A stretch of DNA of 64,000 bases from Candidatus Aminicenantes bacterium (GTDB taxonomy: Bacteria; Acidobacteriota; Aminicenantia; UBA2199): the NCBI GenBank assembly GCA_963827565.1, contig CAWHBG010000001.1:448682-512681 (forward strand). Direction: 5' to 3'. The notes beneath the pieces are model-generated. The model saw only the letters and a program-made list of their open reading frames with translations. It was not told the DNA's origin and searched no databases. Position 1 is the first letter of the stretch. Each line of letters begins with the position of its first letter. A program made the position numbers and the translations under genes. Shown in pieces: positions 3,288 through 44,659 of this stretch.

Positions 3288-3337
3288 TTGAAAACAGGAG
3301 AAAACTGTATTATACTTAAAGCGAACAAAAAGCGAAC
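3288..3337 (+). promoter_or_regulatory. sigma-70 promoter plus direct-repeat LexA-type operator (GAAC-N7-GAAC)
   Basis: TTGAAA (3288-3293), a 17-nt spacer, TATACT (3311-3316), 4 nt, then GCGAACAAAAAGCGAAC (3321-3337), and ATG at 3343. The operator matches the one in front of lexA (23385-23401) at 16 of 17 positions, at the same distance from the -10 element. Confidence 0.65.
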
Positions 3338-3342
3338 AGTAT

Positions 3343-5778
3343 ATGAAATATATTCCATTAAGGGTTTATTCGGTTTTTTCAAGAGGGAAAGGGGCTGTTT
3401 TACCTTCCGGACTTGCATCACTGATGAAGAGGGGAGCGGGGGTAATGGCGGTTACCGACCCTTTCTCTTTTCTGGCCTGGGAAAAATTCTACAGGGAGGC
3501 AAGGGATAACGGGCTGAGATTTCTCCCGGGAATGGAAATATCTATCAGAGGTTCAGGATCCTTTCTCCTCTTCCCGCGTAGCCCTGAAGGGTATTTTTCG
3601 GTTGTTTCATCCTACAATAAAAAAAAACTTACCTCTATGAAGGAGGTCTCAGCTGTCTTAATACCCGGCATTATAAGGGGGGATATCTCCAAAGCGTTCA
3701 ACAATATCAGAGATAGGATGGCAGGAGGGGATATATATTTTGGACTCGAATGGAATAGTGACCGGAGGCATCTCGAGTATGCGGAGAAGGAACGGATACC
3801 GGTGGTCTGGGCAAATTCCCTCAGGTGGACCGGATCTCCGGATAGTTACAAAGTTGTATCCTCTGTGTTCCGGCATCTCCCGTCCGGCGAAGCAGACAGT
3901 GATCCGCAGATTCCCTTATACGGGCCTCTCAGTTACAGCGCAATAATAAAAAGGTGGGGAAGGTCCGGCCGGGAGGCCATGAAAAATACATTTGTTCTTG
4001 CGGATAGTGTCCACTTTGATTTTGCAGAAGACTTTGGGACAACTCTTGGAAGATCGCCCGTTAAGGGAAATGGAAGCAGCCATTCGGGCAGACTCCGCGC
4101 TATCGTAGAGAGGGAGCTTGAGAATATCCGAGCGGATGCCGGATCAAAGGCAAGGGCCGAACAGGAACTGGCAAAGATAGATGAACTGGGATTTTCCCCA
4201 TATTTTCTGATTGCCGAAGAAATAACCCGTTTCTGCAGAAATAATGGGATCTATTTTAATATACGGGGCTCCGGCGGTTCATCGTATGTGTTGTTCCTGC
4301 TGGGGTTGTCCAGGGTGAATCCGATGTACCATAATCTTCTGTTCGAACGATTTGTGAACACACACCGTGATGAACTTCCCGATATAGATATTGATATAGA
4401 TTCCTCCCGCAGAGGTGAGGTACTTAAATGGGTATTCAAAAGTTTCCCCGGGAAAGTGGCATTTATATCCACTCATAAATTCTTCAGGGGTAGATCTGCA
4501 TTATATGAGGTTGCCCGAAGTAATGGTTTTGATCCTGAAGAATCACACCGGATGAGCAAGGAGATTGATATATTCGCTTCTCCTTCTGAATTGAAGGGTA
4601 GGGGTACCGGAAAGATAAGGGAAATAAATGATAAAGCTTCAACGCTGAAAAATGTGTATAAAGAGTTATCCCTTCATCTTGGGGGAGTTATTTTTTCCGA
4701 AAAAAATATAAGGGAATCATTTCCCGTTGAAGTGTCGCCTCACGGATTTGATCAGATCGCATGGGATAAGGACACGGTGGAGAGATTGAAGATATTCAAA
4801 CTGGACCTTCTAGGAGTCAGAGGATTTGATGTTATATCTCCTTACGTGTTCGGAAACAGCATAGATTTTAAAGATGATCTTGTGTGGAGCGCCATAAAGC
4901 GGGCTGCGACAAAGGGGTGTTTTCAACTGGAGAGCCCTCTTGCCAGAGAAAATCTTCTTAAGGCGGCCCCCTCCAGCCTTGAGGAACTTGCCATATCCAT
5001 CGCGATAATAAGACCGGGACCGGCAAAATCGGGAATGAAAAAAGCCTATCTTGAAAAGAGTGAACCTTTCCACCCTCTGTTAGGGAAGATTTTTCCATAC
5101 ACCAGAGGGGCATTGATATATGAGGAGCAGATATCGATCCTCATTCATCATGTGACCGGATGGGATCTTGAAGTGTCTGAGAAAGTGAGGCGGAGCCTGA
5201 AAAAGAGGAAAGGAGAAGAATTCAGAGAGGGGTTCCTTGTCTCCGGGAGGGGAAAGGGATGGAGTGACCAGGAACTTGCAAAGTTCTGGAAAATGTCCTC
5301 AGACTTTTCACTCTACGCTTTTAATAATGCTCATAGTATTTCCTATGCATATTCAGCCTATGTTTCCGCATGGATGAGGACCAGGTTCCCGGTACGCTTT
5401 TTCTCCCGCCTTTTCAATTCCGGGGGAGGTTATTATCCTCTTCCTGTATATATCGAAGAGGCAAAGAACTGCGGGTTGAAAATTCTTCCTCCCGATATTA
5501 ACAGGAGCAGTATAGGATTTACCGAGGAGGAAGGGATGATAAGGACCGGCCTTATATTCATAAAAGGAATAGGAAGAAAATCATCTTCCCTGATCCTTAA
5601 GGAGAGGGGGAAGGGCTATATCGGCCTGGAAGATTTTATCAACAGAACCGGAACAGGTGAGAGGGATCTCTCCGCCCTTATGGCGGTCTCCGCCTTCAGT
5701 TCGATCGGTTATAACGGATTCTCAGAAGAGGAATTAAAGAAGAACTGGAACGACTACCTCGGATTCTTTCCTGAATGA
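3343..5778 (+). CDS. DNA polymerase III alpha-family protein, short DnaE2/ImuC-like form (putatively SOS-regulated)
   Basis: 811 aa. The Pol III alpha palm is present: FNIRGSGGSSYVLFLLGLSRVNPMYHNLLFERFVNTHRDELPDIDIDIDSSRR. A downstream NAHSISYAY and an HhH-like IKGIG follow. The N-terminal PHP region lacks the HxH ligands (LRVYSVFS where LHVHSxYS is usual). The protein ends soon after the HhH region, so it seems to lack the OB-fold/C-terminal part. Confidence 0.8.
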   Translation: MKYIPLRVYSVFSRGKGAVLPSGLASLMKRGAGVMAVTDPFSFLAWEKFYREARDNGLRFLPGMEISIRGSGSFLLFPRSPEGYFSVVSSYNKKKLTSMKEVSAVLIPGIIRGDISKAFNNIRDRMAGGDIYFGLEWNSDRRHLEYAEKERIPVVWANSLRWTGSPDSYKVVSSVFRHLPSGEADSDPQIPLYGPLSYSAIIKRWGRSGREAMKNTFVLADSVHFDFAEDFGTTLGRSPVKGNGSSHSGRLRAIVERELENIRADAGSKARAEQELAKIDELGFSPYFLIAEEITRFCRNNGIYFNIRGSGGSSYVLFLLGLSRVNPMYHNLLFERFVNTHRDELPDIDIDIDSSRRGEVLKWVFKSFPGKVAFISTHKFFRGRSALYEVARSNGFDPEESHRMSKEIDIFASPSELKGRGTGKIREINDKASTLKNVYKELSLHLGGVIFSEKNIRESFPVEVSPHGFDQIAWDKDTVERLKIFKLDLLGVRGFDVISPYVFGNSIDFKDDLVWSAIKRAATKGCFQLESPLARENLLKAAPSSLEELAISIAIIRPGPAKSGMKKAYLEKSEPFHPLLGKIFPYTRGALIYEEQISILIHHVTGWDLEVSEKVRRSLKKRKGEEFREGFLVSGRGKGWSDQELAKFWKMSSDFSLYAFNNAHSISYAYSAYVSAWMRTRFPVRFFSRLFNSGGGYYPLPVYIEEAKNCGLKILPPDINRSSIGFTEEEGMIRTGLIFIKGIGRKSSSLILKERGKGYIGLEDFINRTGTGERDLSALMAVSAFSSIGYNGFSEEELKKNWNDYLGFFPE

Positions 5779-5924: not shown

Positions 5925-8774
5925 ATGAAAGAAGAAATCAGAGAAACGAAGAAGATCAGATCCGATATTTATATAAAAAAAAATCATGCTCTTACTTTCT
6001 CTGAAGATCAAATAATTAATTCAAGGTACAGGATAATTGAAAAAATTGGTTCCGGTGGTTTTGGGAGTGTTTTCCGGGCAACTGATATTTTGTTGAAAAA
6101 AGATGTGGCTTTAAAATTTCTTGATCCGGGCATCAGGGAGAATCACAAAAAATTCATAAGGGTTCAGAGGGAGATCAATATATCCCAGAAAATATCTGAT
6201 GAAAGAATTGTGAAAATATTCGGTATTGATTTCATGGATAATACACCTTTCCTTATAATGGAATTTATTGAAGGGACTAACCTGAAAACATTTATAAAGA
6301 AAAATAGACTCTTAAAATGGATAGACTTTAAATCCTTTTATATTGAGATATTAAACGGGATAAAGTCACTTCATGATAATAATATTATTCACAGGGATAT
6401 TAAACCTTCCAATATCATTATTACATCCGCAGGAAAAATTAAAATAATTGATTTCGGATTATCAAAAGAGCTTGATGATACTGAAAAAACCTCATCTGTT
6501 GGTGAGATGATCGGATCACCCAAATATATGTCACCTGAACAGATCAAAGGAGTTAAACTTGATCAAACTTCTGATATTTATCAACTGGGTTTGATCCTTT
6601 ACTATATTCTAAATCCCGTAAATGAAGGCGAACATGACAGTTCAACAATTGAACAGTTGATGAAAAGAATTAATTCAGACCCGAGAAAAATGTATAAATT
6701 TATTTCCCCTGTATCCCGCTTCTTAAAATCGGGCATTTACAAAGCGATCGAAACTGAAAAAGATTTCAGATTCCAGTCGATAGATGAAATGATAAATTTT
6801 TTTAATTTTGAGAAAATAACTCTGCTTAATACAATATCAAATTTTATTAGAAGGAAGAAAAGTTTTGTTTCTGTTTTAATAAGCTTGATCCTTTTACTGT
6901 CATTGTCTGCAATATTTTATTTCAAAAATTCAGATATTATATCTGATATTAACTTTAATGGCTCAGAAATCATTGCTTCCAATAGTTTTGGCTCCGAATT
7001 ATATAAAAAAAACTTTGCTCCAATGTCAGTACTTAATGCATTGCCCATGGAGATTGACGGTGATTTCAGGAGATTGAGACTGAGAGTTGATAAAAAGAGT
7101 TATTTAAACAGCAAAGAAAAAATTGGTGTAGTCTTTCTTACAAAAAAGAATTTATATAAAGATATAGTAAAACTCTCAATTAAATCAGAAAATTTTTCAA
7201 GCAGTGTAGCTCTGGTTAATAATATGGGAAAAATTCTTCATCATCAGAATTTTCACCTGGAAAATAATCAAATGAAAAAATCATTATTTTCCGGATGGAT
7301 GGATTTTAATGATATCAAATGTCAGGATCTGAACGCGGATAAAAAAAATGAAATAATTTTTACAACTTTTCAGAATATGAGTATGTATCCATCCGAACTT
7401 TGCATTCTGAATAATAAAGATTTTCATATTCTACAGAGTCCGGGTCATATAGAGCATTATTATTTTTATAATGATATAAGTAATGACCCCAGGGTTCTTT
7501 TTACCGGTATGAATAATCCCTTTTGTCATTTAAAGTTTATTTGTGATACAAATGTAAATAATATCAACAGTATTCATTTACCTCCTTCCCTTCTTGAGAA
7601 TATAGTGCTTGGCATCCCAAAATTTTCATACATGCTCATTCCACACAAAACTGAGATTTTAGAAAACAGGTGGGTCGAACAAGGTATAATTTCTTTCAAA
7701 TCTCAAATTGATGGCAGGGTATTTAAATTAAATAAAGAATGGGAATTGAGTATAACTGATGCTACTGGTACCAGGACCTATAAAGACAAACCTCAGAAGA
7801 TATCTGATATGATCTATTTCCTGAATCGCGCTTATCAGAAAAAAATTGAAAAAAGAAGCAGCAATAATCCATTTTATGAAATCAGTAAAGCTTTAAAACT
7901 AAACATTTCTAATCCGATTTTTCTTGCCCTAACAAATTATCTGGCAGGCGATCTGTATTTAAGTTCAGGATATTATTCCAAGGCTGAAGAGTATTTTAAT
8001 ATATCCAACAGCTTTCTTTCCAATAATATAGACCTAAATCAGAAAATATCAGAATTATACTTTTTGTCAGGCCAGAAAAAAAAACTACAGAGAGAAATTG
8101 AGAAAAATTCATTTGATCGCTCAAAATTTTTCGGGCTTGGTAATTTCGGGATTAAATTATTTAAAGTATATGTTTATCTGAATTCAGGTGACTTCAGATC
8201 TGCTACGGATCTATCCGGTGATTATAGTAAAGCCACAGATTACATTAAAGGTATGATATCTATCTTCAAAGGAGACTATAAAAATTCACTAAATGAAACA
8301 TCACGTCTCATAGGTAGACGTTCTACTCCTTTTACACTTTCAGAAGCACGATTGTTGTTTTCAAGATCAGTTCTCCTGAACTATATATTCAATAATAATA
8401 GTAGTCTAATTAAACATGAAGATGTAAAACTTGCAGATTTTTACTTCTCAGATATTGCAGTTAATTCTATTCTGGATGGTCATCTCGCAGCTATGTCCAG
8501 AGCATATTTTATGGCCTTGAAGGGAGATCTTTTGAATTCAGAAAAATATGCTGATGAAACTTTAAAAAAACTTTTACAGGATAGCAAAGGGGATATGTTT
8601 ACAAAATTGTGGTTGTTTTATGATTCATTTATATACTCAAAAATTATGGAAATAACAGGTAATATTAGAAAGGAATTGAAAGGATATAAAATTTCATATG
8701 AATCAAATCCTTATTCTGATCTGGGAGTAAAATCTAAAGCAATGATAAGTAGATTAAAGAGAAAAAAACTATAA
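5925..8774 (+). CDS. membrane Ser/Thr protein kinase with large non-cytoplasmic C-terminal region (paralog 1)
   Basis: 949 aa. Hanks kinase motifs are present: GSGGFGSVFRA, VALKFL, HRDIKPSNII, DFGLSKE, SPKYMSPEQ. One TM helix (FVSVLISLILLLSLSAIFYF) is followed by ~600 aa of unknown fold ending in TPR-like helices. Confidence 0.85.
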   Translation: MKEEIRETKKIRSDIYIKKNHALTFSEDQIINSRYRIIEKIGSGGFGSVFRATDILLKKDVALKFLDPGIRENHKKFIRVQREINISQKISDERIVKIFGIDFMDNTPFLIMEFIEGTNLKTFIKKNRLLKWIDFKSFYIEILNGIKSLHDNNIIHRDIKPSNIIITSAGKIKIIDFGLSKELDDTEKTSSVGEMIGSPKYMSPEQIKGVKLDQTSDIYQLGLILYYILNPVNEGEHDSSTIEQLMKRINSDPRKMYKFISPVSRFLKSGIYKAIETEKDFRFQSIDEMINFFNFEKITLLNTISNFIRRKKSFVSVLISLILLLSLSAIFYFKNSDIISDINFNGSEIIASNSFGSELYKKNFAPMSVLNALPMEIDGDFRRLRLRVDKKSYLNSKEKIGVVFLTKKNLYKDIVKLSIKSENFSSSVALVNNMGKILHHQNFHLENNQMKKSLFSGWMDFNDIKCQDLNADKKNEIIFTTFQNMSMYPSELCILNNKDFHILQSPGHIEHYYFYNDISNDPRVLFTGMNNPFCHLKFICDTNVNNINSIHLPPSLLENIVLGIPKFSYMLIPHKTEILENRWVEQGIISFKSQIDGRVFKLNKEWELSITDATGTRTYKDKPQKISDMIYFLNRAYQKKIEKRSSNNPFYEISKALKLNISNPIFLALTNYLAGDLYLSSGYYSKAEEYFNISNSFLSNNIDLNQKISELYFLSGQKKKLQREIEKNSFDRSKFFGLGNFGIKLFKVYVYLNSGDFRSATDLSGDYSKATDYIKGMISIFKGDYKNSLNETSRLIGRRSTPFTLSEARLLFSRSVLLNYIFNNNSSLIKHEDVKLADFYFSDIAVNSILDGHLAAMSRAYFMALKGDLLNSEKYADETLKKLLQDSKGDMFTKLWLFYDSFIYSKIMEITGNIRKELKGYKISYESNPYSDLGVKSKAMISRLKRKKL

Positions 8775-8779
8775 ACCGT

Positions 8780-11596
8780 ATGAAACAGGAAAATGGATCA
8801 AGAGAGACTATCATTAATTCCCCAATAAAGAATTCATTTCTGAATAGGATTAAAACATTTAAAGACAAAAAAATTAATTCCCGTTATAGTTTAATTTCAG
8901 AACTCGGAAGTGGTGGTTTTGGAGTTGTCTACAAGGCATCAGATACAGTCCTGGAAAGGGAAGTTGCGATAAAATTTCTGAATCCCGACTACACCTGTAA
9001 TGAAAAAAAATTTCACAGGGTAAAACGGGAGATAAATATTTCCAGAAAGATAACCGATAAAAGAGTTGTGAAGATCTTTTCATTGGAGAGATATGAAGGG
9101 ATCTATTTCCTGGTGATGGAATATCTGGATGGAAAAAGTCTTAAGGACAAAATCAGAGAAGATGGCAGGATCGGGTGGAGTGAATTCAGTTTGGTATTTA
9201 TAAATATTCTTAAAGGTGTAAAAGCCCTTCATGATCAGGGGATAATTCACAGGGACCTGAAACCCTCTAATATAATGTTGGTTGGAGAGGGTGAGATCAA
9301 AATCCTTGATTTTGGATTATCTAAAGAGGTTGATGACCTGGAGCGGACATCATCTATTGGTGAATTGATCGGTTCTCCTCACTATATGTCTCCTGAACAG
9401 GCTGATATGGGTGAAATAGGTATGAGGTCGGATATATATCAAGTAGGCCTGATCTTATATAGGGTTTTATCGGATTCTATGCCTTTTGACGATTCTAAAA
9501 GCACATTTGAGCTTATTTATAAAAGAATTCTTGAAAAACCGAAAAAGATAGATCGGAAAAAGCTGAATATCCCCAAGTATGTAGAGTTCGGTATTTTTAA
9601 AGCCATCGAGAGAAAGGCTGAGAACAGGTTTAATTCAATAGTTGATATGATATCCTTTTTTGAAAAGGGAAACTTCTCATTAACAAGAAAGATCTTTCAC
9701 AATATAAAAAAATTCAAGTGGAGAATTGTATTCTTATCTCTATTGATTCTAACGGCAATATATGTTTTTTTGTCCCTGTTTGGTAATAGAGAAGTTTCAT
9801 TTGTAGAGTTCAATCAGAGTAATATTTCTGCTTATAATAATCTTGGAATCGGGTTGTGGGAGAAAGATTTTAAGCCATATACTATTAATACCTCGTTTAT
9901 CCTTGATAACAATATCAGGGTAGAGGCTGATACTAACAGAAACAATTTCAGTATTGATTCAAATAAAATACTTACTTTGCTTAATAACCATTCAGAGATA
10001 AAAAATATTTCAATTGGGTCCCGGGATCTGGATAACAAGGTCTCTATACTGACTAATGACGGACAGGAACTGGATAAGATCGGATTTTATACTTTTTTTG
10101 ATGTGGGAGTATATGATTTTTTCAAAAAATTCTATGCAAGTAAAATAATAAACACTGACATAGACCGTGACGGCCATAAAGAGAAAATTCTGTTTATAAG
10201 ACACTTCATGGATATGTTTCCAACTGCATTTGTTTTCATCAAGGACTCCAACATTTACAGTTATGCGAATCCGGGCACCATTTCAGATTATGTTTTTTTA
10301 AAACCTGAAAAGGGTAATATTAGAATCTTAATGTGCGGAGTCAATAATATCCTTTCCCACCTTTTTTTTGTAGCTGAAATAAATTTCCCTTTAAAAAGCA
10401 ATTTCCTGGTAAGACAGACAAGCATACCTAACCTGAGACAGCGTAATATATATCTGCCGGAATTCCTCAGTTTCATTCCGGATTTTTCAAGTTATGATAA
10501 TTCCGACTGGGAAAGATCCGGATTGGTGAAGTTCAAGGATTACAGATCAGGAAATGAAATCATGCTTACCAGAGATTATAAACTGACAATCAATGACGGA
10601 AAAAGTGTTGTTTCCTATTCAGATGACAAGGATAATCTCTTCAGGATTTACAATCAGATCAATCAGTATTATTCAGAAAAACTGTTGAGTAAAAACAATA
10701 AAAAAGCTTATGAACATATACTTCACTGCATTGATTTGGACCCACAGAACCCTTTCCTGAGGTCAGCGTTATTGTTCTTTAAAGGTGATCTCGAGATCGA
10801 AATGGGTCATCCGAAAATGGGCCGAAAAACACTTGAGAATTCCCTTGAATCCTATATGTACAATCGGGATGCAGCTCAGCGTTTATGTGAACTGGATTTT
10901 CTTGAGGGGAATCCTGACATTGCATACAGAAGGGCAAGTGAAGAATTGGGGCATATCAATACTTTCTGGGGGATAAGTTCGGGAAAGGAAATTTTTAAAA
11001 GTTATTGCAAACTTCAATTGGGTGATTTTTCCAAAGCACGGGAGATACTATCATTATCTGTTTTTAAATCTAATCTTTCCAATAGCAGAACTTTTCTGGG
11101 AATACTAAGTTTATTCTCCGGAGAATATATGGAGAGTCTTAAAAGATTTTCAACTCCTGATAAAAACCGGATTTTTACTATTGCTGAAAACAGGTTGTTA
11201 TTAAGCAGGGCGTTACTCCTCACCAATTCTGATATTAAAAAAGCTGAGTTTTATTTTAGTGATATTGCACTCCACTCTTTATCGTTATATCACCTGGCAA
11301 GGATATCTGATCACTATTTAAAACTAAAGAATGGTTCAGGTAAAGTTACAAGCAGAGATGTAAAAAGAGAGTTTAATGAACTGGTAAATCTTTCCAAAGG
11401 GAATTTCCACTCTAAGCTCTGGTTATTTTATGATGCTTATTTATATGGCAGAATAATGGAAATGCTGGACGATAGGACAGAGGCGGTAAAAGGGTATAAG
11501 TTGTCAATTGAGTCAAATCCATATACAGATCTTGCAGGAAGATCCAGATCGAGACTAAAAGTTCTAAATTATCAGTGTATAACTGATAAGGATTAA
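8780..11596 (+). CDS. membrane Ser/Thr protein kinase, tandem paralog 2
   Basis: 938 aa with the same architecture: GSGGFGVVYKA, VAIKFL, HRDLKPSNIM, DFGLSKE, SPHYMSPEQ, and TM helix WRIVFLSLLILTAIYVFLSLF. The C-terminal end is conserved with paralog 1 (KLWLFYDAYLYGRIMEM...GYKLSIESNPYTDL versus KLWLFYDSFIYSKIMEI...GYKISYESNPYSDL). The gap to paralog 1 is 5 nt. Confidence 0.85.
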   Translation: MKQENGSRETIINSPIKNSFLNRIKTFKDKKINSRYSLISELGSGGFGVVYKASDTVLEREVAIKFLNPDYTCNEKKFHRVKREINISRKITDKRVVKIFSLERYEGIYFLVMEYLDGKSLKDKIREDGRIGWSEFSLVFINILKGVKALHDQGIIHRDLKPSNIMLVGEGEIKILDFGLSKEVDDLERTSSIGELIGSPHYMSPEQADMGEIGMRSDIYQVGLILYRVLSDSMPFDDSKSTFELIYKRILEKPKKIDRKKLNIPKYVEFGIFKAIERKAENRFNSIVDMISFFEKGNFSLTRKIFHNIKKFKWRIVFLSLLILTAIYVFLSLFGNREVSFVEFNQSNISAYNNLGIGLWEKDFKPYTINTSFILDNNIRVEADTNRNNFSIDSNKILTLLNNHSEIKNISIGSRDLDNKVSILTNDGQELDKIGFYTFFDVGVYDFFKKFYASKIINTDIDRDGHKEKILFIRHFMDMFPTAFVFIKDSNIYSYANPGTISDYVFLKPEKGNIRILMCGVNNILSHLFFVAEINFPLKSNFLVRQTSIPNLRQRNIYLPEFLSFIPDFSSYDNSDWERSGLVKFKDYRSGNEIMLTRDYKLTINDGKSVVSYSDDKDNLFRIYNQINQYYSEKLLSKNNKKAYEHILHCIDLDPQNPFLRSALLFFKGDLEIEMGHPKMGRKTLENSLESYMYNRDAAQRLCELDFLEGNPDIAYRRASEELGHINTFWGISSGKEIFKSYCKLQLGDFSKAREILSLSVFKSNLSNSRTFLGILSLFSGEYMESLKRFSTPDKNRIFTIAENRLLLSRALLLTNSDIKKAEFYFSDIALHSLSLYHLARISDHYLKLKNGSGKVTSRDVKREFNELVNLSKGNFHSKLWLFYDAYLYGRIMEMLDDRTEAVKGYKLSIESNPYTDLAGRSRSRLKVLNYQCITDKD

Positions 11597-22959: not shown

Positions 22960-23330
22960 CAGGTATGGTTCCTACAAGATATACAGTCTTACTCTCGCCA
23001 TCATCCACTTCGCTTCCCGCTACGGATGTTCTCATCCGCTTAACGCTGCAGTCCTCGGGGGGATCGATCTTCGGCGAGTCCCCCCCTCCGGTGCCCGCGA
23101 GAGCAGATGGATGGCTGCGCAATGTAACTCCTTTCAGAACAAATATCATTCATATTGTTCAATACTCTTTGGGGCGCTTCCGTGTTTTGCTTTTGCGGGA
23201 CTGGAAGCCCGAGTCTCGTCAAAATCGAACGGAGGGCGGACCTCCAGAAAAATACCAGCAGGATTTTTCGGTAGCAAAGAGCAATCACGGATAAAGCCTG
23301 TGCAAACAGAATAAATGAATGATATTTTTT
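22960..23330. ncRNA. candidate structured RNA / GC-rich non-coding element of unknown class
   Basis: No protein-like ORF appears in any frame. There is a local GC spike: I count 42/60 G+C in 23041-23100, against ~19-22/60 in the kinase genes. Hairpins include CGGATG-TTCT-CATCCG (23023-23038), GGGGGGATCG..CGAGTCCCCCC (23057-23087), GCAG..CTGC (23103-23118), GCTTCC..GGAAGC (23176-23207) and GGAGG-GCGGA-CCTCC (23231-23245). CTCTCGC (22992-22998) is complementary to GCGAGAG (23097-23103). The strand is undetermined. Confidence 0.3.
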
Positions 23331-23351: not shown

Positions 23352-23401
23352 TTGACATGGGGAGGATTTTATACTATATTATAAGCGAACAAAAGGCGAA
23401 C
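23352..23401 (+). promoter_or_regulatory. lexA promoter with direct-repeat LexA-type operator (GAAC-N7-GAAC)
   Basis: TTGACA (23352-23357), a 17-nt spacer, TATATT (23375-23380), 4 nt, then GCGAACAAAAGGCGAAC (23385-23401), and ATG at 23404. The layout matches 3288-3337. Confidence 0.7.
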
Positions 23402-23403
23402 TG

Positions 23404-23976
23404 ATGATCACAAAAAAACAAAAAATTTTTCTGGAAAAACTGAGATCCAAGGTTACCAGCGACGGATATTTCCCTTCGGTCAGGGAGATATGTGAGATCA
23501 CCGGACTCTCCTCCCCCGCAACCGTCCACTCCTACCTTACCCGCCTGGTGGAAAACGGTTATCTCCGCAGGGACGGCAGGTCGTGGATCATGATACCTGA
23601 GAAAGGTCTGATTCCACTCGTCGGAATAGTTCCTGCCGGATCCCCGTTGGAGGTATTTGAATCTCTCGGGGAAGAAGTTGAGCTTCCGGAATGGATGGTC
23701 GATAAGGGGGGAGATAAGGTTGCTCTGAGGGTTCAGGGTGAAAGTATGAGGGATGCTTATATAAGGGAAGGGGATATAGTGATAATAAAGAAGACACCCG
23801 ATGCAGAATCGGGTGATATGGTCGTTGCCCTTATGGAGGATTCCACAATTACCCTTAAAAGGCTGAAAAAGAACAACGGGTCTGTATGGCTGATCCCAGA
23901 GAATCCGGAATTTGAACCTATCCATGACCCCTTCAAACTTGTAGGGAAAGTGATCGGTGTCCTGAGGAGATATTAA
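23404..23976 (+). CDS. lexA: LexA repressor
   Basis: 190 aa. It has an N-terminal winged HTH (SVREICEITGLSSPATVHSYLTRLVENGYL), an Ala-Gly cleavage site (VPAGSP), and the S24 Ser (GESMRDA) and Lys (VIIKK). Confidence 0.9.
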   Translation: MITKKQKIFLEKLRSKVTSDGYFPSVREICEITGLSSPATVHSYLTRLVENGYLRRDGRSWIMIPEKGLIPLVGIVPAGSPLEVFESLGEEVELPEWMVDKGGDKVALRVQGESMRDAYIREGDIVIIKKTPDAESGDMVVALMEDSTITLKRLKKNNGSVWLIPENPEFEPIHDPFKLVGKVIGVLRRY

Positions 23977-23978
23977 GT

Positions 23979-25169
23979 GTGAGCGCCCCTTTTGTTCTCC
24001 ATATAGATATTGATGCATTCTTTGCCGCTGCGGAAGTGATGATGCGTCCGGGGCTTAAAGGGAAACCGGTTATAATCGGGGGAATGCCCGATGAGCGGGG
24101 TGTTGTCAGCACAGCTTCCTATGAAGCGAGGAAGTTCGGTGTACATTCCGGAATGGCGCTCAGGAATGCAGGCCGTAAATGTCCTGAAGGGATATTTCTA
24201 AGAGGCAGATTTCATATATATGAGAGGATATCCCGTGAGTTCTTCAAGTGTCTTTCCCGATTTTCTCCCGTAGTGGAACCGGTTTCTGTGGATGAAGCAT
24301 ACATTGACCTCAGCGGTATAAAATATTCCGGGTCTTCTGTTTACGACCTTGCAGCCGCGATAAAAGAATCTGCCGAAAAACATATAGGATTGAAAGTATC
24401 TGCGGGGCTGGGATATACAAAACTGGGGGCAAAACTTGCAACAGAGGCAGCAAAGCCCGGGGGAATATTTTTCATGGATGATGAGAAAGAATTTATATCA
24501 GGACTTTCACTTGAAAAGATACCCGGTATCGGGCCTCACACCCTGGTCATTCTTCACGGAATGGGAATTAAGAGGGTCAGCGAGTTAAAGGAGAAGAATT
24601 TCTCTTTATGGAAAAGGGTTATAGGGCATTATTTCTATTCACCCTCCGGTGAGTACAGGAGGAGAAAAGAACCGAAAACAAGGAGTTTCAGCAGAGAAAC
24701 AACTTTTTTGAATGATATAAGGGACAGGAATATGATACTGTCACACCTTGCATACCTCCTGGACAGGCTTTCGGTATATCTGGTAGAAAAAGGCCTCTAC
24801 GCCGGGAGAGTGGAGGTAAAGGTGAGATTCAGTGACTTTTCCACATTTACAGCCAGAAATGCCCTCGAATTCCCGACATTTTCCTACCGGGATATGTGGA
24901 AGAGTTCCGTTCCTCTTCTGGATAAGTTATTGAAGAAAAAAAAACTGCCTCTCAGACTGATAGGTATTAAAGTGGAGGATATTGCAAAGACCAGGTCTCT
25001 GCTTCCGTTCGTTTCAGTGGATGGCGAAAAGTTGAGCAGAACCATTGCCGGGATCAAGAAGAAGCACGGGTTCTCTTCAATTTTCACAGCGAGAGAATTT
25101 CTTCTGGAAAGGGTATATCCCGTGGAGAAAGAGGGAGTTGTTCTCAAGACCGCTTCTCTCACAAAATAA
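23979..25169 (+). CDS. dinB: DNA polymerase IV (Y-family)
   Basis: 396 aa with a GTG start 2 nt after the lexA stop. Motifs: HIDIDAFFAAAE, SVDEAYIDL and KIPGIGP (HhH). It is co-oriented with lexA in an operon-like arrangement. Confidence 0.9.
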   Translation: MSAPFVLHIDIDAFFAAAEVMMRPGLKGKPVIIGGMPDERGVVSTASYEARKFGVHSGMALRNAGRKCPEGIFLRGRFHIYERISREFFKCLSRFSPVVEPVSVDEAYIDLSGIKYSGSSVYDLAAAIKESAEKHIGLKVSAGLGYTKLGAKLATEAAKPGGIFFMDDEKEFISGLSLEKIPGIGPHTLVILHGMGIKRVSELKEKNFSLWKRVIGHYFYSPSGEYRRRKEPKTRSFSRETTFLNDIRDRNMILSHLAYLLDRLSVYLVEKGLYAGRVEVKVRFSDFSTFTARNALEFPTFSYRDMWKSSVPLLDKLLKKKKLPLRLIGIKVEDIAKTRSLLPFVSVDGEKLSRTIAGIKKKHGFSSIFTAREFLLERVYPVEKEGVVLKTASLTK

Positions 25170-25222: not shown

Positions 25223-28105
25223 ATGACAAAGTTGGATCATGATATCGGGAAAGGGCTTGAAGTTGATTATGAACCGCAATTTGGTATTTTCCATGACCTT
25301 ATAAAATTCAGAGTTAGGGAAATACTTCTCGTATCCAGTTTTTATGATGCGTTTGTACTGGAAGAGGATGGGAGGTTGTCTGAGAGGATATTCAGTGAAT
25401 ATATTGATCTGAACCTGAGATTTATTCCCCGTATCATACGTGTTTCAAGTGGCGAAGAAGCAATAGCAGCTCTTGAAAAAAGCTCTTTTGATCTTGTGAT
25501 CACCATGACAAGACTTACCGGGATGGATTCGCTTGAGTTTGGCCAGAAAGTGAAATCCATGTATCCCGATATGCCCGTTGTGCTTCTTACCTATGACTGG
25601 ATACCGCCTGACAGGCTTATTAAATTCAGAGAGACCGGTTTTATCGATAAGGTATTCTATTGGGGAGGGGATACGAAGATCCTGCTTGCGATCATTAAGT
25701 ATGTCGAAGATAAAAAGAATATTGATAATGATATAAAACTGGGAGTTCGAGTGATTGTAGTAATCGAAGACTCTCCAAGGTATTATTCTCTTTTTCTCCC
25801 CATCATTTATACGGAAATAATGACCCAGACACGGTTGCTGATATCGGAAGGGGTGAACGATCTTCACAGGCTTCTGAGAATGAGGGCCCGTCCGAAGATC
25901 ATCATGGCCGAAACCTATGAGCAGGGGATAAAATTATACAATAAATATAAAAAAAACCTGCTGGGGATCATTTCAGACATCAGGTTCCCGAGGAAAGGAA
26001 AGATCGATCCTGAATCCGGTTTTAGATTTGCCGGGAAGGTCAAAGATGAGATACCTGACCTGCCGATACTTCTCCAGTCATCCAATTCAGGGAACAGAGA
26101 AAAGGCATATTCCATGGGGCTGGATTTCCTTAATAAATATTCGAATAATATGCTTCAGGAACTGCAGAACTTCATACTTAATAATTTTGGATTTGGCGAC
26201 TTCATTTTCAGAAATAAATCAGGTTCTGGAAATAGGCCGTGCCAGGAATATTCATGAGTTCCGGAAAATGATAGATATCATTCCCGATGAGAGTTTGCAG
26301 TATCATGCCGGAAAGAACCATATCTCGATATGGTTGAGGGCCAGAACTGAATTTGACACAGCTGAGAAGCTGAGGCCGAAAAAGATCAGTGATTTCAACG
26401 ATATTGACGGGCTGAGGAATTTTATCCGGAAAGAGATTCATAATTTACTGACAAAAAACCAATATGGGGTTATCACTGATTTCGGTCAGGTAACGTTTGA
26501 CTCGGAAAACTCTTTTGTAAGGCTGGGTAGCGGATCACTTGGAGGTAAGGCAAGAGGGCTTGCATTTCTTAACGCCTGATGGCAAAAACCGAGCTGAATG
26601 AACAGTTTGCGAAGGTGGAGATCAAAACTCCTCATACATTTGTGATCTGCAGTGAAGTTTATGAAGAGTTCATGAAAACCAATGATCTGTTGAAGTTTGC
26701 AATTTCCGAACAGGATAATACAAAAATTGCCAGGCGTTTTGTGAAAGGGAAACTACCGAAAAAAATAATGAATGACCTGAAAATATTGTTGAAAAATGTT
26801 AATTACCCGATCGCGGTCAGATCCTCAAGTCTTCTTGAAGATTCACAATTACTCCCTTTTGCCGGATTGTACTCAACCTATATGCTGCCCAACAACAAGG
26901 CTGAAAGTTCAAAAAATTACAGACAGCTTGAGAATGCCGTAAAACTGGTATATGCATCGGTTTTTTACAAATCACCTAAAGAGTATGTAAAGAATACGAA
27001 CTTCAGGATAGAAGAAGAGAAGATGGCAGTGATCATTCAGCAGATCGTCGGTAGTGAATACAATGATAAATTTTATCCTGTGATATCCGGCGTTGCTCAA
27101 TCATACAATTATTATCCCATTTCTCATATGGAACCGGAGGACGGTATTGTCCAGCTTGCACTGGGATTGGGTCCGATCATTGTCGAAGGGGGCCAGGTTT
27201 ACAGGTTTTCATCAAAATATCCGGAAATGAATCCCCCGTATTCGGATGCGGCCGAGTTCCTGAAAAAATCTCAGAACACATTTTATGCACTTGATATCAG
27301 AAATTCACCGCAGAGTATAGGCACGGATGAAAAATTCAGTTTGAAGAGTTATGGTCTGAAGGATGCTGAAAATGACGGGACACTATTTTATGTGGCCAGC
27401 ACCTTTTCCAGCCAGGATAATGCAGTGAAGGATACGATATCTATCGACGGCCCCAGAATTATAACCTTTGCAAATATTCTGAAACATAATCTTTTTCCAC
27501 TCGCTGATATTCTGAATGAGATCCTCGAGATCGGGAGTAAATCGTTCGGTTCGCACATAGAGATCGAATTTGCAGTCGATCTTTCAAAAAACAGGAATAA
27601 AGTTCCGGAATTTTATATGCTTCAAATAAGGCCGATGGTTGCAGGTGGAGAGTCTGCAGATATCCAGTTTGATAAAAAAAACACTCATCATATGATCTGT
27701 TCGACACGTCATCCGATGGGAAATGGAAAGATAAGTAATATCAGAGATATTGTATATATAAATCCTGACAAATTTGACATCTCGAAAAGCAGGATCATTG
27801 CTCAGGAGATCGGCTCAATTAATAAAAACCTGGTCGAGGAAAAGAGAAAATATCTGCTGATTGGTTTCGGAAGATGGGGAACTTCAGATCCATGGCTCGG
27901 GATACCGGTGGAGTGGCATCAGATCAGCGGGGCTCAGGTTGTTGTGGAGTCTTTTATAAATGATTTCAGAATAGAGCCGTCATTAGGGAGCCATTTTTTC
28001 CATAATATGATCTCGTTACATATGGGTTATTTTCATATCAGCGACAGGGTTGAGGACGAGTATATCAACTGGGACTGGCTTAAAAAGCAGAAAATTTGTT
28101 TCTGA
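25223..28105 (+). pseudogene. receiver-like domains fused to a PEP/pyruvate-binding (PPDK_N, ATP-grasp) domain; one gene split into three ORFs
   Basis: Track ORFs 25223..26257, 26028..26579 and 26579..28105 read as one protein. The first join is ...GDFIFRN / NQVLEIGRARNIHEF (frame change near 26215). The second is ...GSGSLGGKARGLAFLNA / MAKTELNEQF...TPHTFVICSEVYEEF (frame change at 26577), which breaks inside the GGKA-containing PPDK_N domain. The N-terminus has two REC-like modules (DLVITMTRLTGMDSLEF; GIISDIRFPRKG). Confidence 0.65.
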
Positions 28106-37686: not shown

Positions 37687-38913
37687 TCAAGAATGGCTTT
37701 TTACATTAATATTTTTTATATTCAGATCCTTGAATATTATCTCCACTGCAATCTTCGACATGAAAGTGAATAGGAGAAATCCAAGTGAAAATATCATTAC
37801 CGCTGTTCTTATCTCTATCATTGACGGCCTGTAGATGAAAAGTTGACCCAGTGTATCAGGAGAGTATCCCGGAGTAATAAGTGCAATACCCTTCTCAATG
37901 TAAACACCGATATAGATCAGGACAGCTCCCAGATTCAATGTGATAATATTTTTTCTGGTTTTCGGGATCAGGAATAATAAAAATGCAATAATACTGAAAA
38001 TTATTGACATCCACGCATATAAAACAAGATCGTTATGCCCTTTAACTCCCAGGAATAGATACTTCAGATGAACAACGTGATGTGTATTGGAGTAGACTTC
38101 CTTGAATATTTCACTGAAGAAGAGAAAAAGGTAGAGGAACATCGAGTATGCCATTAATTCAGCGATCTTCTCAATTGCTTCCTGCTTGATATCAAATTTA
38201 GTTGTTTTTTTAAGGATCTGGAAAAGGATAAGGAGAACTGCAGGTCCGGAGCAGAAAGCCGATGCAATAAATTTCGGGGCAAGCAGTGCACTGTTCCAAT
38301 AGGGCCTTGCAGCCATTCCGTTGAAAAGAAAAGCGGTGACGGTGTGGATAGAGATCGCCATCGGGATCGAGAGGAGTATCAGTTTATTGAATATCTTTTT
38401 ATTGTACTCTTTCTTAATAAAATGCATGTAAAGGAGATAGGTTACAATGAAAAGGTTCAGGAAAAAATAGAGGTTCAATACGATCGAATCCCATGCGAGG
38501 AGTGAGTCCGGAAAATTTAAAATCCCGATAAACGGGATCATATGCCAGAGCCGGAAGGGGCCTCCCATATCCACGATCACAAAGCCCAGGGCCATTATAA
38601 CTGCACTGACCGCCAATATTTCTCCGAAAATTGTTATCTCCTTGATCGGTTTCCAATGGTAAACATAGGCCGGAATTACCAGTAAGATGGCGGCTGCTGC
38701 AACACCTACAAGAAAAGTGAAGTTCCCGATATAAAATCCCCATGAAATAGAGTCGTTCATATTTGTAACAGCCAGGCCGCTTTTTAATTGCTCAAAATAG
38801 CCCAGGGCTCCCCATATTATGAGAAGAAGCAGGGAGGATATCCATATATAATAATATTTATTCCCTTTCAGGATCACTTTAAAAGACTCTTTTACAAAAT
38901 TAATAAATTTCAC
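37687..38913 (-). CDS. NrfD/PsrC-like polytopic quinol-interacting membrane subunit
   Basis: 408 aa with ~10 TM helices. It lies immediately downstream (13 nt) of the Tat-exported 4Fe-4S protein, the standard NrfCD/PsrBC/ActBC context. Confidence 0.75.
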   Translation of the reverse strand: MKFINFVKESFKVILKGNKYYYIWISSLLLLIIWGALGYFEQLKSGLAVTNMNDSISWGFYIGNFTFLVGVAAAAILLVIPAYVYHWKPIKEITIFGEILAVSAVIMALGFVIVDMGGPFRLWHMIPFIGILNFPDSLLAWDSIVLNLYFFLNLFIVTYLLYMHFIKKEYNKKIFNKLILLSIPMAISIHTVTAFLFNGMAARPYWNSALLAPKFIASAFCSGPAVLLILFQILKKTTKFDIKQEAIEKIAELMAYSMFLYLFLFFSEIFKEVYSNTHHVVHLKYLFLGVKGHNDLVLYAWMSIIFSIIAFLLFLIPKTRKNIITLNLGAVLIYIGVYIEKGIALITPGYSPDTLGQLFIYRPSMIEIRTAVMIFSLGFLLFTFMSKIAVEIIFKDLNIKNINVKSHS

Positions 38914-38925
38914 GTTTCACCTCGA

Positions 38926-39828
38926 CTAATAAAAATAATAGAACTTGGGCTGAGTGTTGAGCTCTTCTTTAAGGATCAGTACCCTCTTATGTTTCAGGAT
39001 ATATCTGATCTCACTTTCGGGGTCGAGAAGGTTTCCGAATTTTCGAGCCCCCACCGGACATATCTCGACACAGGAAGGGTAGAGACCCTCCCTCACTCTC
39101 TGAACACAAAAAGTACATTTTTCAACAACCCCTTTCATTCGTGGCCTGTTACCGTAATAATGGGTAACAGGATTGATCCCATCTTTATCAATATCCGGCT
39201 CTGCCCAATTAAAATGCCTTGCTCCATAAGGACATGCAGCCATACAGATCCTGCAGCCTATACACCAATTATAATCAACAACTACTATACCGTCCTTTTC
39301 CTTCCAGGTGGCGCCGACAGGGCATACCTTTGTACAGGGAGGGTTCTCACATTGCTGGCATGCTACAGGGAAATAGAAATGATCATCATCAGGAACAAGC
39401 TCACGTTCATAATCTGCGCGTGAATGAAAAAGGTCCACACCTTTGTCCTTTGCCATTTCCAGGACTGTTATCCAGTGGATCTGCGGATCTTTAGACTGAT
39501 TATTCTCTTCAACGCATGCATATACGCACCTCCTGCACCCGATGCATCTGGATATATCAAGCCCGTATCCAAATAATGTTTCATCGATCGGATCCTTCCC
39601 GGATACACTGAATTTCTTACCGTATTTTTCTGTATATTTTTTTTCAAGTCTTTCAATTATTTTATTTTTATCATTTTCATCCAGAGTTCTGAAGTTTTTC
39701 TGAAAAAATTCTTCCCACGAGGTTTCAGATCCGCATGCAGCAAGAGTAGCAAAGGTGGAGGCCAATGCGGTCTTTTTCAAGAATGTTCTTCTCGACTCTT
39801 TTTTTTCAACAGATTTTTTCTTGCTCAT
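38926..39828 (-). CDS. Tat-exported 4x[4Fe-4S] ferredoxin-type subunit (NrfC/HybA/PsrB-like)
   Basis: It has a twin-arginine signal (SRRTFLKKTALASTFATLAA) and four Cys clusters: CIGCRRCVYAC, CQQCENPPC..VCP, CIGCRICMAACP and CTFCVQRV...CVEICP. Confidence 0.85.
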   Translation of the reverse strand: MSKKKSVEKKESRRTFLKKTALASTFATLAACGSETSWEEFFQKNFRTLDENDKNKIIERLEKKYTEKYGKKFSVSGKDPIDETLFGYGLDISRCIGCRRCVYACVEENNQSKDPQIHWITVLEMAKDKGVDLFHSRADYERELVPDDDHFYFPVACQQCENPPCTKVCPVGATWKEKDGIVVVDYNWCIGCRICMAACPYGARHFNWAEPDIDKDGINPVTHYYGNRPRMKGVVEKCTFCVQRVREGLYPSCVEICPVGARKFGNLLDPESEIRYILKHKRVLILKEELNTQPKFYYFY

Positions 39829-39830
39829 AC

Positions 39831-40358
39831 TTATCTCCTACCTTTCATCGGGTCTGCGGGTGCAGGTTCCGGTTTCATTTTTTTATACTTTGGTGAATGG
39901 GGATTATGACAATGAGCACACAGGAGGTACTTTTTCTTACCGTTCCAGAATCCGGTTCTCTTTCCGTGTGCACCATTTTTCCATTCTCTTAATTTTGGCC
40001 CGTGGCACTGGCCGCATAATTTATATGATTCTGTGAAATCTATCAATTTTCCATTTGCAAGATGGAGTTTATCCCGGTTCTTCATATCGTGACAGTCGAG
40101 GCACCATCTGTTCTTCTCATCATGCTTCAGGATTATGTCATCATGCATTTCCTCAAGTACCCTTCTCTCAGGATTCGGTTCCATATCACCATGACATTCT
40201 GTGCATGGGAATATATCCTCACTGAACGGGGGAGGAGGGACCTGAATCAGTTCGCTCTTCTCGGTACTCTCCTGGCCGTATACTCCTTGGGGAACGGTGA
40301 TCAGGATTAAAACTAAAATAATTAAAATTAAAAAATCATACTTTATGATTGTTCTCAT
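39831..40358 (-). CDS. periplasmic tetraheme c-type cytochrome (NrfB/Cbc-type partner)
   Basis: 175 aa with a signal peptide and four CXXCH motifs (CTECH, CLDCH, CGQCH, CAHCH). Its stop lies 2 nt before the FeS gene start. Confidence 0.85.
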   Translation of the reverse strand: MRTIIKYDFLILIILVLILITVPQGVYGQESTEKSELIQVPPPPFSEDIFPCTECHGDMEPNPERRVLEEMHDDIILKHDEKNRWCLDCHDMKNRDKLHLANGKLIDFTESYKLCGQCHGPKLREWKNGAHGKRTGFWNGKKKYLLCAHCHNPHSPKYKKMKPEPAPADPMKGRR

Positions 40359-40531
40359 TTTTGATCCTCTTATTAAATATATTAATAGTTCAATGATATA
40401 ATCATCTGAATATAATTTAAAGATATGAAATGAATTTTTTTATCATTCAGTTATTAATGTCAAGAATGGCCGAATAAAATTATAGTGAAGTATTACTGTA
40501 TATAAATGCTGAATAAATTTAATTTATACTA

Positions 40532-42346: not shown

Positions 42347-42347
42347 A

Positions 42348-43484
42348 TTAGTTCCCTTTTTTTATCTCTGAGTTTTCTTTTCTCTTTCTGAACAACATTA
42401 ATATGAAATGGATCAATAAACCAAGAAAAACAACAATACTTGAAATATAAGGCAATAGCCTTCCCGAATTTTTCACAACTGCAAAAACAGAATATTCAAC
42501 TCCGGCAGGAGTGATATGATATCGGGATTGAAAGAATGTGTATTCTTTATATCTGAGAGGTTTGTTCATTGAAATTACAAGTTCTCTTTTAAGGTCTTCA
42601 TGCTTTATTTCGACTGTACTTTCATAACTTTTTACGATCTGTGAACCCGGATATTTTTTGATCCTAAAGTCTAAAAGCCCAACCTCGACCGGGAGTTTTT
42701 TTCTTAACTTCCTCAAAGAGAAATGATAATCACTTCCCAAAATCATAACATGAGTGGGTAATGTCTCTCCACCGTAAAGAATAATGTCCTTATTAATATC
42801 TTCAGAATATAGCATGATCCCGGGAACATTTTCTTCCGGTTCCGCCTCAGGCTGTCTCTCATCAATTGAGACGATCCCTGATGCATTCAGAACATTCTGT
42901 TTTGATGAACCCTCTTTATTTCTGAAAGCTGAAGCGTTCCGGAAAGATTTTTTAACATTAATCTTAATCGGAAAATCCGGAAATGAGATTGATTTATCCG
43001 GTTCTATATCTTTCAGATCAATGACAGAATAGTGCCTTACACCATCCTTGTCATTCCACACTGAGAGTTCCCATGCATGATAAGAATTTGACCACGAACT
43101 TTTTTCTCCCTCTTTCAGCATGAGGACGCTCTCTTCTGAAAAGAGGAAAGTAAAAAATCCCCCTATAAGAAGTATCAATATACCGATATGGGTAAGAATA
43201 TTACCTATGTTCTTAAATCTGAATCCGATCCTGAAGATCATGGAACTGATCAGGTTTAAAAACAGAACGGACATTGTAAGAGCCCCTCCAGGGATGGGAA
43301 TGAATCCCAAAGCAAGAAAAAACCATGAAGTGAAGAATTTTGCTTTTGCAGCATACAGGCCGTTATCGGTCTGATAAATCGTTCCCCATATAGTAAGAAC
43401 AGTTAGAACTATCAAACATATTACTGTCAATTTCAGCGAATAGCTGAATTTAATAAAGTTGTTTTTTTTTAGTTTGTTTAGCAT
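42348..43484 (-). CDS. ccsB: System II cytochrome c biogenesis protein ResB/CcsB
   Basis: 378 aa with the ResB-like topology and N-terminal pattern (SLKLTVICLIVLTVLTIWGTIYQ, NILTHIGILILLIGG, a large loop, then a C-terminal TM helix). It abuts ccsA. Confidence 0.7.
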   Translation of the reverse strand: MLNKLKKNNFIKFSYSLKLTVICLIVLTVLTIWGTIYQTDNGLYAAKAKFFTSWFFLALGFIPIPGGALTMSVLFLNLISSMIFRIGFRFKNIGNILTHIGILILLIGGFFTFLFSEESVLMLKEGEKSSWSNSYHAWELSVWNDKDGVRHYSVIDLKDIEPDKSISFPDFPIKINVKKSFRNASAFRNKEGSSKQNVLNASGIVSIDERQPEAEPEENVPGIMLYSEDINKDIILYGGETLPTHVMILGSDYHFSLRKLRKKLPVEVGLLDFRIKKYPGSQIVKSYESTVEIKHEDLKRELVISMNKPLRYKEYTFFQSRYHITPAGVEYSVFAVVKNSGRLLPYISSIVVFLGLLIHFILMLFRKRKENSEIKKGN

Positions 43485-44098: not shown

Positions 44099-44111
44099 TT
44101 AATTGCCTTTT

Positions 44112-44597: not shown

Positions 44598-44630
44598 CTT
44601 ATCTCCTTTAAATTATTTAAACTTGATGAT

Positions 44631-44659
44631 TTTATAATTTATATCCTGAAAATTGTCAA
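44631..44659 (-). promoter_or_regulatory. candidate sigma-70 promoter of the c554-like/lipoprotein/ccsBA operon
   Basis: The minus strand reads TTGACA (44659-44654), a 17-nt spacer, then TATAAA (44636-44631). This is about 35 nt upstream of ATG 44597. Confidence 0.45.

Follow-up and report, generated by a model that had tools for sequence, protein, structure and literature searches.

Direct-repeat LexA boxes and their probable counterparts in Aminicenantes

In the Alphaproteobacteria, LexA recognizes a direct repeat, GTTC-N7-GTTC (PMC3323433, PMC8565304), and Mazon et al. (2006, Microbiology 152:1109) reportedly described the same box in Acidobacterium capsulatum and, going by their title, took it as a sign of lateral acquisition. 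Here we describe two sites of this kind, both predicted to be operators of the SOS repressor LexA, in a stretch of 64,000 nucleotides (hereafter the window) from a Candidatus Aminicenantes bacterium (GenBank assembly GCA_963827565.1, contig CAWHBG010000001.1, positions 448,682 to 512,681 of the forward strand): one precedes lexA itself and the other a gene for a short C-family DNA polymerase. An earlier reading of the window from its letters alone (the sequence-only reading) had pointed out the repeat and named both bodies of literature; the alphaproteobacterial motif is indeed as stated there, and the A. capsulatum study is cited by title in the literature on that motif. The GAAC direct repeat was once reportedly read as evidence that Acidobacterium had acquired an alphaproteobacterial lexA. 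Recognition of direct repeats has evolved in LexA on several independent occasions, according to Kilic et al. (2020; PMC7739468), who cite papers on Verrucomicrobia, Patescibacteria and A. capsulatum. We found no paper in the searchable literature that names both Aminicenantes and LexA, and the box described here is a known operator type in a lineage for which that literature holds no description.

The Aminicenantes box shares with its alphaproteobacterial counterpart the GAAC tetranucleotide, the 7-nucleotide gap, a place in SOS promoters and the (in Aminicenantes predicted) autoregulation of lexA, but it has a longer conserved half-site, (G)CGAAC, of the kind known from Gram-positive boxes, its spacer is almost purely purine, its position is fixed just after the −10 element in one orientation, and its LexA, of 190 amino acids, has no alphaproteobacterial linker insertion. 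The Terriglobia (A. capsulatum) box is identical in motif, and numerous soil contigs have the 17-nucleotide element (17-mer) ahead of repair genes; however, the LexAs of the two groups are only 41% identical, the Terriglobia box can face either way and also lies inside promoter spacers, and the genes seen under it are imuA-like, radical S-adenosylmethionine (SAM) and MrfA-type helicase genes, as opposed to dinB and a short dnaE in Aminicenantes. With the Gram-positive Cheo box, CGAAC-N4-GTTCG (Bacillus subtilis and Actinobacteria; PMC3323433), the Aminicenantes site has the half-site CGAAC in common, and the window LexA is 42% identical to that of B. subtilis and similar to it in the recognition helix (SSPATVHSYL and SSSSTVHGHL, respectively). 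The arrangement, in contrast, is a direct repeat whose GCGAAC half-sites start 11 bp apart and not a palindrome. The sequence-only reading had maintained that the box is not of the palindromic Gram-positive type, and so it proved: a GTTCG partner at the Cheo-box distance is present in none of the orthologous sites, which rules out a hidden Cheo-type palindrome as well. Finally, the LexA regulon of Patescibacteria (Sanchez-Osuna, Barbe and Erill, 2017, here as it is cited among direct-repeat motifs in PMC7739468) has GCGAAC-N5-GCGAAC in common with Aminicenantes, but there two boxes face in opposite directions, one of them filling the gap between −35 and −10, and the LexA has 201 amino acids and is 32% identical to that of the window.

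In the window, both sites sit within the same promoter layout on the forward strand, and direct reading of the sequence bears out, base for base, the repetition of this layout that had been described. At the polymerase gene (3288–3345) a −35 hexamer TTGAAA (3288–3293; TTGACA at the equivalent place in four other loci, L048, L050, L052 and L173) and a −10 hexamer TATACT (3311–3316), separated by 17 nucleotides, are followed after four nucleotides (taaa) by the predicted LexA operator GCGAACAAAAAGCGAAC (3321–3337) and after five more (agtat) by the ATG at 3343. At lexA (23352–23406) the order is TTGACA (23352–23357; kept across orthologous promoters), 17 nucleotides, TATATT (23375–23380), four nucleotides (ataa), the predicted autoregulatory operator GCGAACAAAAGGCGAAC (23385–23401), two nucleotides (tg) and the ATG at 23404. 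A promoter scanner returns exactly these hexamer pairs with their spacers of 17 nucleotides (10 of 12 matches at the polymerase site, 11 of 12 at the lexA site), and both −10 elements are supported by the orthologue profile. The distance of 4 nucleotides from −10 to box claimed for both sites is correct, as is the claimed match between the two 17-mers at 16 of 17 positions, the sole difference being A/G at position 11. Both contain the direct repeat GAAC-N7-GAAC (3323–3337 and 23387–23401).

The exact pattern GCGAAC-N5-GCGAAC occurs twice on the two strands of the window, at precisely these sites, where 100 shuffles give an expectation of 0.00; with up to two mismatches it occurs six times (1.11 expected), and the looser GAAC-N7-GAAC four times (1.3 expected). 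With a 20-nucleotide weight matrix for which only the lexA sites of orthologues in other genomes were used, the lexA site reaches 30.9 bits and the polymerase site 29.8 bits, whereas no further place in the window exceeds 19.2 bits. A box-like sequence with that score, ATCGAACGGAGGGCGGACCT (23224–23243), lies 160 nucleotides upstream of the lexA box and recurs in one other locus (L003); we treat it as probably no operator because it sits inside an open reading frame (ORF; 22965–23294) and forms a GGAGG-N5-CCTCC hairpin.

Conservation of the box and the case for LexA

For comparison, 47 loci were taken from species-representative genomes, 29 of them with an Aminicenantes-type LexA (48–92% identical to that of the window). 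In 28 of these 29 lexA loci a TTGACA-17-TAnnnT promoter is followed by CGAAC-N6-CGAAC, immediately ahead of the start codon. Counted over 31 distinct orthologous lexA promoters from different species-level genomes and metagenome contigs (a duplicate locus being dropped and four further lexA promoters added), the repeat is found at the equivalent place in 30. An information profile anchored on the box has conserved blocks only at the −35 element, the −10 element and the two CGAAC pentamers, and the sequence between the promoter elements drifts. The box spacer is almost purely purine, and the box keeps one orientation relative to the gene throughout Aminicenantes; in most of these promoters the lexA ATG lies 2 nucleotides past the box. 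Such a footprint is, at the level of sequence, the classical signature of LexA autoregulation, and it gives the operator reading strong support.

At the polymerase gene, eight further loci are available, and the gene has its own copy of the box in four, a degenerate one in a fifth, and follows directly after lexA–dinB in the other three. The four orthologues with their own box are 75% (L048), 70% (L173), 59% (L050) and 54% (L052, in the 9.1-Mb genome CP070627.1) identical to the window protein. In the first three the gene has its own promoter and box (in L048 a TTGACA-17-TAnnnT promoter and then the box); in L052 (3891–3976) two boxes flank the promoter, one upstream of the −35 element and the other after the −10 element, and the Shine-Dalgarno site is separate. 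The gene order is dnaE-like, lexA, dinB in L050 and lexA, dinB, short dnaE in L175–L177; on the order in L050, we regard the three genes as a recurrent cluster that is split by 20 kb in the window. Across about 370 kb of Aminicenantes DNA, the window included, CGAAC-N6-CGAAC occurs only before lexA or the short polymerase gene. Pfam searches with about 40 further ORFs of the window brought up no additional gene for DNA repair, the products being multihaem cytochromes, kinases and enzymes of lipid synthesis and the tricarboxylic acid cycle, so that, among the annotated ORFs, the two boxes precede the only three damage-related genes of the window.

We put at roughly 85% the probability that both 17-mers are operators for the LexA encoded at 23404–23976. 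Each box lies 4 nucleotides after the −10 of a strong sigma-70-type promoter and hence spans the place where transcription is predicted to begin, together with nearly all of the short leader; with a start 6–8 nucleotides after the −10, the operator would extend over roughly +1 to +17 of a leader of about 17–22 nucleotides. A LexA dimer would bind head-to-tail, with one winged-helix domain per GCGAAC half-site, and since the half-site starts are about one helical turn apart, both domains would lie on one face of the DNA, an arrangement that would need the flexible linker known from the Escherichia coli LexA–DNA structure (3jso, among the structure matches). Bound LexA would then block open-complex formation, RNA polymerase access or promoter escape. 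Upon DNA damage, RecA-stimulated self-cleavage at Ala78–Gly79 by the Ser114/Lys152 dyad would release the repressor, and three genes would be induced, lexA, the DinB-like Y-family polymerase gene presumably co-transcribed with it and the gene for the short C-family polymerase, which would form a small module for damage tolerance and mutagenesis. Given this operator, the LexA regulon of Aminicenantes, a widespread uncultured lineage of sediments, should be predictable by a simple scan.

A number of observations weigh against this assignment. The lexA promoter of one locus (L022), whose LexA is 58% identical to that of the window, has no CGAAC repeat. At the polymerase gene, the second half-site is degenerate in L174 (orthologue 55% identical), and in the three GC-rich loci in which the gene directly follows lexA–dinB (L175–L177, 50–52% identical) it has no box of its own. 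The compared loci were chosen for carrying lexA or the polymerase gene, and the absence of the motif elsewhere rests on only those 370 kb. Neither the window nor the compared Aminicenantes loci contain recA, uvrA, ruvAB or recN, and a tblastn search with E. coli RecA over all sequences collected found a true recA in the GC-rich contig L056 only and none in Aminicenantes DNA. A search for sequencing runs that contain the window sequence found no RNA runs, only runs of metagenomic DNA, with no more than 16% of its words. To our knowledge, the structure of a symmetric LexA dimer on a direct repeat has been solved for no species.

Departures from the common pattern take various forms. In L022 (2900–3000) the −35 and −10 elements of lexA enclose a palindrome of the form TTAC-N6-GTAA, TTACgtttatGTAA, and the recognition helix is altered (SSTATIHMYLKKL); possibly the LexA motif has been switched here inside the class Aminicenantia. 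In L028 (1973–1992) both lexA half-sites read TGAAC and not CGAAC, and there too the recognition helix is changed (STNSVWKYLKIL, with NSVWKY in place of ATVHSY). The two loci together provide an anecdotal hint of co-variation between protein and site. In L175–L177 the box-free spacer before the polymerase gene (L175:9857–10000, L176:9806–10000, L177:9797–10000) carries short tandem GTCAC(G/T)-type repeats (cgtcacgcgtcacgtgtcacgcgtcactt) and, in L175, a hairpin.

It is unlikely that the direct repeat is instead the operator of another transcription factor, for example a damage-independent regulator of the lexA and polymerase promoters. Such a regulator might be thought of since the motif is seen to govern no more than three genes in Aminicenantes, response regulators use direct repeats more typically than LexA does, and a response-regulator gene (25223–26257) lies just downstream of dinB; its product, however, has no recognised DNA-binding domain match in Pfam. 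The motif tracks lexA itself, in all but one of the 31 promoters, and its half-site and spacing are identical to those of the LexA motif established by experiment in Alphaproteobacteria and A. capsulatum. Moreover, among the matches listed in a metagenome scan (see below), contigs of Terriglobia and Patescibacteria have the 17-mer ahead of lexA, of imuA-like genes and of further repair genes, and the recognition helix of the window LexA, SSPATVHSYL, resembles those of other GAAC-binding LexAs, a (T/G)(V/I)H core being common to all that were compared.

Harder still to credit is an element acting at the level of RNA, with the GCGAAC repeats in a conserved 5′ leader steering translation or stability of the mRNA. 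It is true that the box lies almost wholly inside the predicted leader, overlaps a purine tract resembling a Shine-Dalgarno site at lexA and keeps a single orientation relative to the gene in Aminicenantes. However, the 17-mer is not self-complementary, and an Rfam search gave no family at the site; the second copy in L052, upstream of the −35 element, lies outside any transcript, and in Terriglobia and Patescibacteria the repeat occurs in opposite orientation and inside promoter spacers. These upstream and opposite-orientation copies fit a site in double-stranded DNA and not an RNA motif.

That the resemblance between the two sites arose by chance or by duplication of a promoter segment, with no regulatory meaning, is barely conceivable: there are just two copies in the window, and AT-rich intergenic DNA often yields promoter-like hexamers (about one per 400 nucleotides in shuffles), but shuffling gives no expectation at all of the exact 17-mer pattern, the box is kept across dozens of species while its flanks diverge, and the two regions are alike in nothing but their −35 and −10 hexamers and the box, which makes this a similarity of motifs and not a duplicated segment.

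LexA, the two polymerases and their leaders

The lexA gene (23404–23976, forward strand) encodes a protein of 190 amino acids with a winged-helix DNA-binding domain and an S24 autopeptidase domain (Pfam LexA_DNA_bind and Peptidase_S24). It scores 154.2 bits against the NCBIfam model TIGR00498 (cut-off 110.95) and aligns over its full length with the solved LexA structures 3k2z and 1jhh. The cleavage site A78–G79 (VPAG) and the residues S114 (GESM) and K152 (TLKRL) are invariant in a 20-sequence alignment of the LexA family; on these features, the window LexA is canonical and should be cleavable.

The sequence-only reading had taken the motif as a hint either at the affiliation of this DNA or at lateral acquisition of lexA. 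The first holds, in that the best homologues of LexA and of the polymerase carry the names Acidobacteriota or Candidatus Aminicenantes. In the NCBI taxonomy Aminicenantota is a candidate phylum, and GTDB places Aminicenantes as a class inside the Acidobacteriota. An import of lexA from Alphaproteobacteria, by contrast, finds no support, since the window LexA is only 33% identical to alphaproteobacterial LexA, as against 41–42% to the LexAs of Terriglobia and B. subtilis, and is without the alphaproteobacterial linker insertion. In the LexA phylogeny that had been proposed as a check, here a neighbour-joining tree of 20 LexAs and as such too small to tell vertical from lateral descent, the Aminicenantes LexAs form a clade of their own and Terriglobia LexA pairs weakly with the alphaproteobacterial one. 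The direct repeat in Aminicenantes may have been inherited within the Acidobacteriota or have arisen anew from the Gram-positive CGAAC half-site. As the motif is used by the distantly related LexAs of Aminicenantes, Terriglobia and Patescibacteria, its history merits phylogenetic re-examination.

Directly behind lexA, starting 2 nucleotides past its stop codon, lies a gene for a Y-family polymerase of 396 amino acids (23979–25169, forward strand; Pfam IMS, IMS_C and IMS_HHH), and the two are probably co-transcribed as an operon and hence under one operator; the lexA–IMS pair is also adjacent in L050, L175, L176 and L177. The protein scores 249–259 bits against the NCBIfam models for Pol IV (with NF002677, 249.1 bits, just under the cut-off of 256) and keeps the catalytic motifs HIDIDAFF and SVDEAY. 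Since its catalytic acidic residues are retained and it scores close to the threshold of the Pol IV models, we consider it DinB-like and not an inactive ImuB.

The gene behind the first box (3343–5778, forward strand) encodes a C-family DNA polymerase of 811 amino acids, a homologue of the alpha subunit of Pol III (Pfam DNA_pol3_alpha, finger domain and HHH_6), and belongs to a large Aminicenantes family of proteins of 800–890 amino acids. It reaches the threshold of neither the DnaE2 model (NCBIfam NF004225, 322.6 bits, cut-off 939) nor the DnaE model (NF004226, 324.5 bits, cut-off 1002), aligns only with residues 302–892 (of 1160) of E. coli alpha, and ends after HHH_6 (residue 791 of 811), without an OB-fold and C-terminal part; its translation shows two palm motifs, PDIDIDID and KLDLLG. 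The label ‘DnaE2-like’ given to it earlier can thus be kept for its presumed function only, as the DnaE2 model fails, the OB-fold and C-terminal part are missing and no imuA or imuB lies nearby. Indeed, no ImuA-like gene was found in any Aminicenantes locus examined, the neighbours of the polymerase gene being serine/threonine kinase genes or, in other genomes, lexA–dinB.

The imuA–imuB–dnaE2 SOS mutagenesis cassette, reportedly described by Abella in 2004 and by Erill in 2006, combines a LexA-controlled C-family polymerase with a protein of Y-family fold, often beside lexA, and in this it is like the lexA/IMS/dnaE-like adjacency in L050 and L175–L177. The Aminicenantes cluster differs in having no imuA and in its C-family member, which has about 810 amino acids and no OB-fold region and fails the DnaE2 model. 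Fitting neither DnaE nor DnaE2, the C-family member of this conserved lexA, dinB, short dnaE cluster is a candidate for a new damage-induced polymerase. We tentatively propose, as a possibility toward which we remain rather doubtful, that Aminicenantes have a minimal, polymerase-centred SOS module in which LexA controls itself, the DinB-like polymerase and this uncharacterised C-family polymerase of about 810 amino acids, the last serving, with neither ImuA nor ImuB, in translesion synthesis or as a mutator once damage has induced it. An equally tentative consequence would be that the CGAAC direct repeat is ancestral in the Acidobacteriota or has repeatedly arisen from the Gram-positive half-site, and is no mark of lexA transfer from Alphaproteobacteria. 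In the short polymerase of the proposed module the palm aspartates are intact, and there is no OB-fold or tau-binding part.

Two sequence features recur in the family of the short polymerase. Its tail, NWxxYLGF(I/V/L)P, is strongly conserved and lies at or a few residues from the C-terminus (in the window protein and in P0121–P0240), and its N-terminus, (Y/V)(I/V)PLRVYSVFS, stands at the place of the usual metal-binding histidines of the PHP domain. We do not claim the C-terminal YLGFF as a beta-clamp motif, since the tail bears a closer resemblance to the LGFY-type motif found just ahead of the OB fold in DnaE. Directly after the polymerase gene, the window has two tandem genes for serine/threonine protein kinases of about 940 amino acids (5925–11596), and a kinase gene is also found downstream in L048 and L173.

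With regard to translation, it had been claimed that neither leader has a Shine-Dalgarno sequence and that most other genes of the window have strong sites of the AGGAGG type. The former is true of the polymerase leader (none, −2.0 kcal/mol) but only in part of the lexA leader, where AAAGG lies 7 nucleotides before the ATG (−4.4 kcal/mol); as to the latter, strong Shine-Dalgarno sites are present at only about one-third of the ORF starts in the window (median energy −2.9 kcal/mol). The site at lexA is owed to the purine-rich spacer of the box, AAAAGG, which doubles as a weak Shine-Dalgarno sequence; several orthologues have GGAGG or GAGG in this spacer.

The motif outside Aminicenantes

When metagenomes were scanned for GCGAACAAAARGCGAAC, at least 120 loci matched, mostly in GC-rich contigs (54–62% GC) from soil and peat, and for this reason supports a role of the motif in the Acidobacteriota at large and says nothing of the size of the Aminicenantes regulon. 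Among the matches listed, the 17-mer of soil and peat contigs follows promoter-like elements and precedes genes for ImuA-like proteins of RecA fold (at least 10 loci) and radical-SAM ‘DNA repair photolyases’ (at least 9); also among these matches are sites before genes for MrfA-type DEAD helicases (at least 6), two families of small unknown proteins (at least 6 and at least 4) and LexA (at least 4, two of Patescibacteria type and two of Aminicenantes type). The only Aminicenantes lexA promoters among the matches listed are L125 and L134, a DnaB cluster among them is named Acidobacteria or Candidatus Acidoferrum, and several further listed matches fall inside coding sequence.

In one locus (L163), whose LexA belongs to a cluster named Terracidiphilus (Acidobacteriaceae), an identical 17-mer, GTTCGCTTTTTGTTCGC, abuts the −10 element of lexA; the Acidobacteriaceae are also the family of A. 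capsulatum. GC-rich contigs such as L056 are attributed to Terriglobia. In L056 itself (6612–6628) a box in GTTC orientation, beside TATACT, lies about 150 nucleotides upstream of the true recA gene, whose product has 68% identity to E. coli RecA. Three low-GC loci (L109:10336–10385, L110:992–1041 and L130:2191–2238) hold lexA promoters of Patescibacteria in which two boxes face opposite ways, reading TTGAC-GTTCG-N6-GTTCG-G-TATAAT and then, about 10 nucleotides downstream, GCGAAC-N5-GCGAAC. An alphaproteobacterial lexA control locus (L038) has GAAC-N7-GAAC-N7-GAAC upstream, and the loci of Ignavibacteria and Prochlorococcus carry other motifs.

About 12 of the matches listed, in metagenome contigs from the human gut, are unrelated, being either tandem AAAAAGCGAAC repeats or sites before a gene resembling D-tyrosyl-tRNA deacylase. 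Specifically, six of the gut contigs (L054, L063, L066, L078, L100 and L152; 40–43% GC) contain GCGAACAAAAAGCGAACAAAAAGCGAAC, a tandem 11-nucleotide repeat upstream of a gene for a small secreted protein and with no LexA context, and are false positives.

The two families of small proteins, which have no Pfam match and are encoded directly after the box, are candidates for unknown SOS genes. One (L065, L088, L106 and L146) and the other (L064, L067, L068, L073, L091 and L122) are found in GC-rich contigs attributed to Terriglobia; one family has proteins of 70–90 amino acids that start with MDEGRKRVLxIMAAIL, and the other has proteins of about 100 amino acids that contain RCRVSFxDSEGxxHxVEVxAxSLYEAV.

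Elsewhere in the window, a cluster at 37687–49265 encodes multihaem c-type cytochromes (685 and 733 amino acids), a membrane subunit of NrfD type, a 4Fe-4S protein and cytochrome c assembly proteins (ResB/CcsA-like), and looks like a module for extracellular or periplasmic electron transfer.

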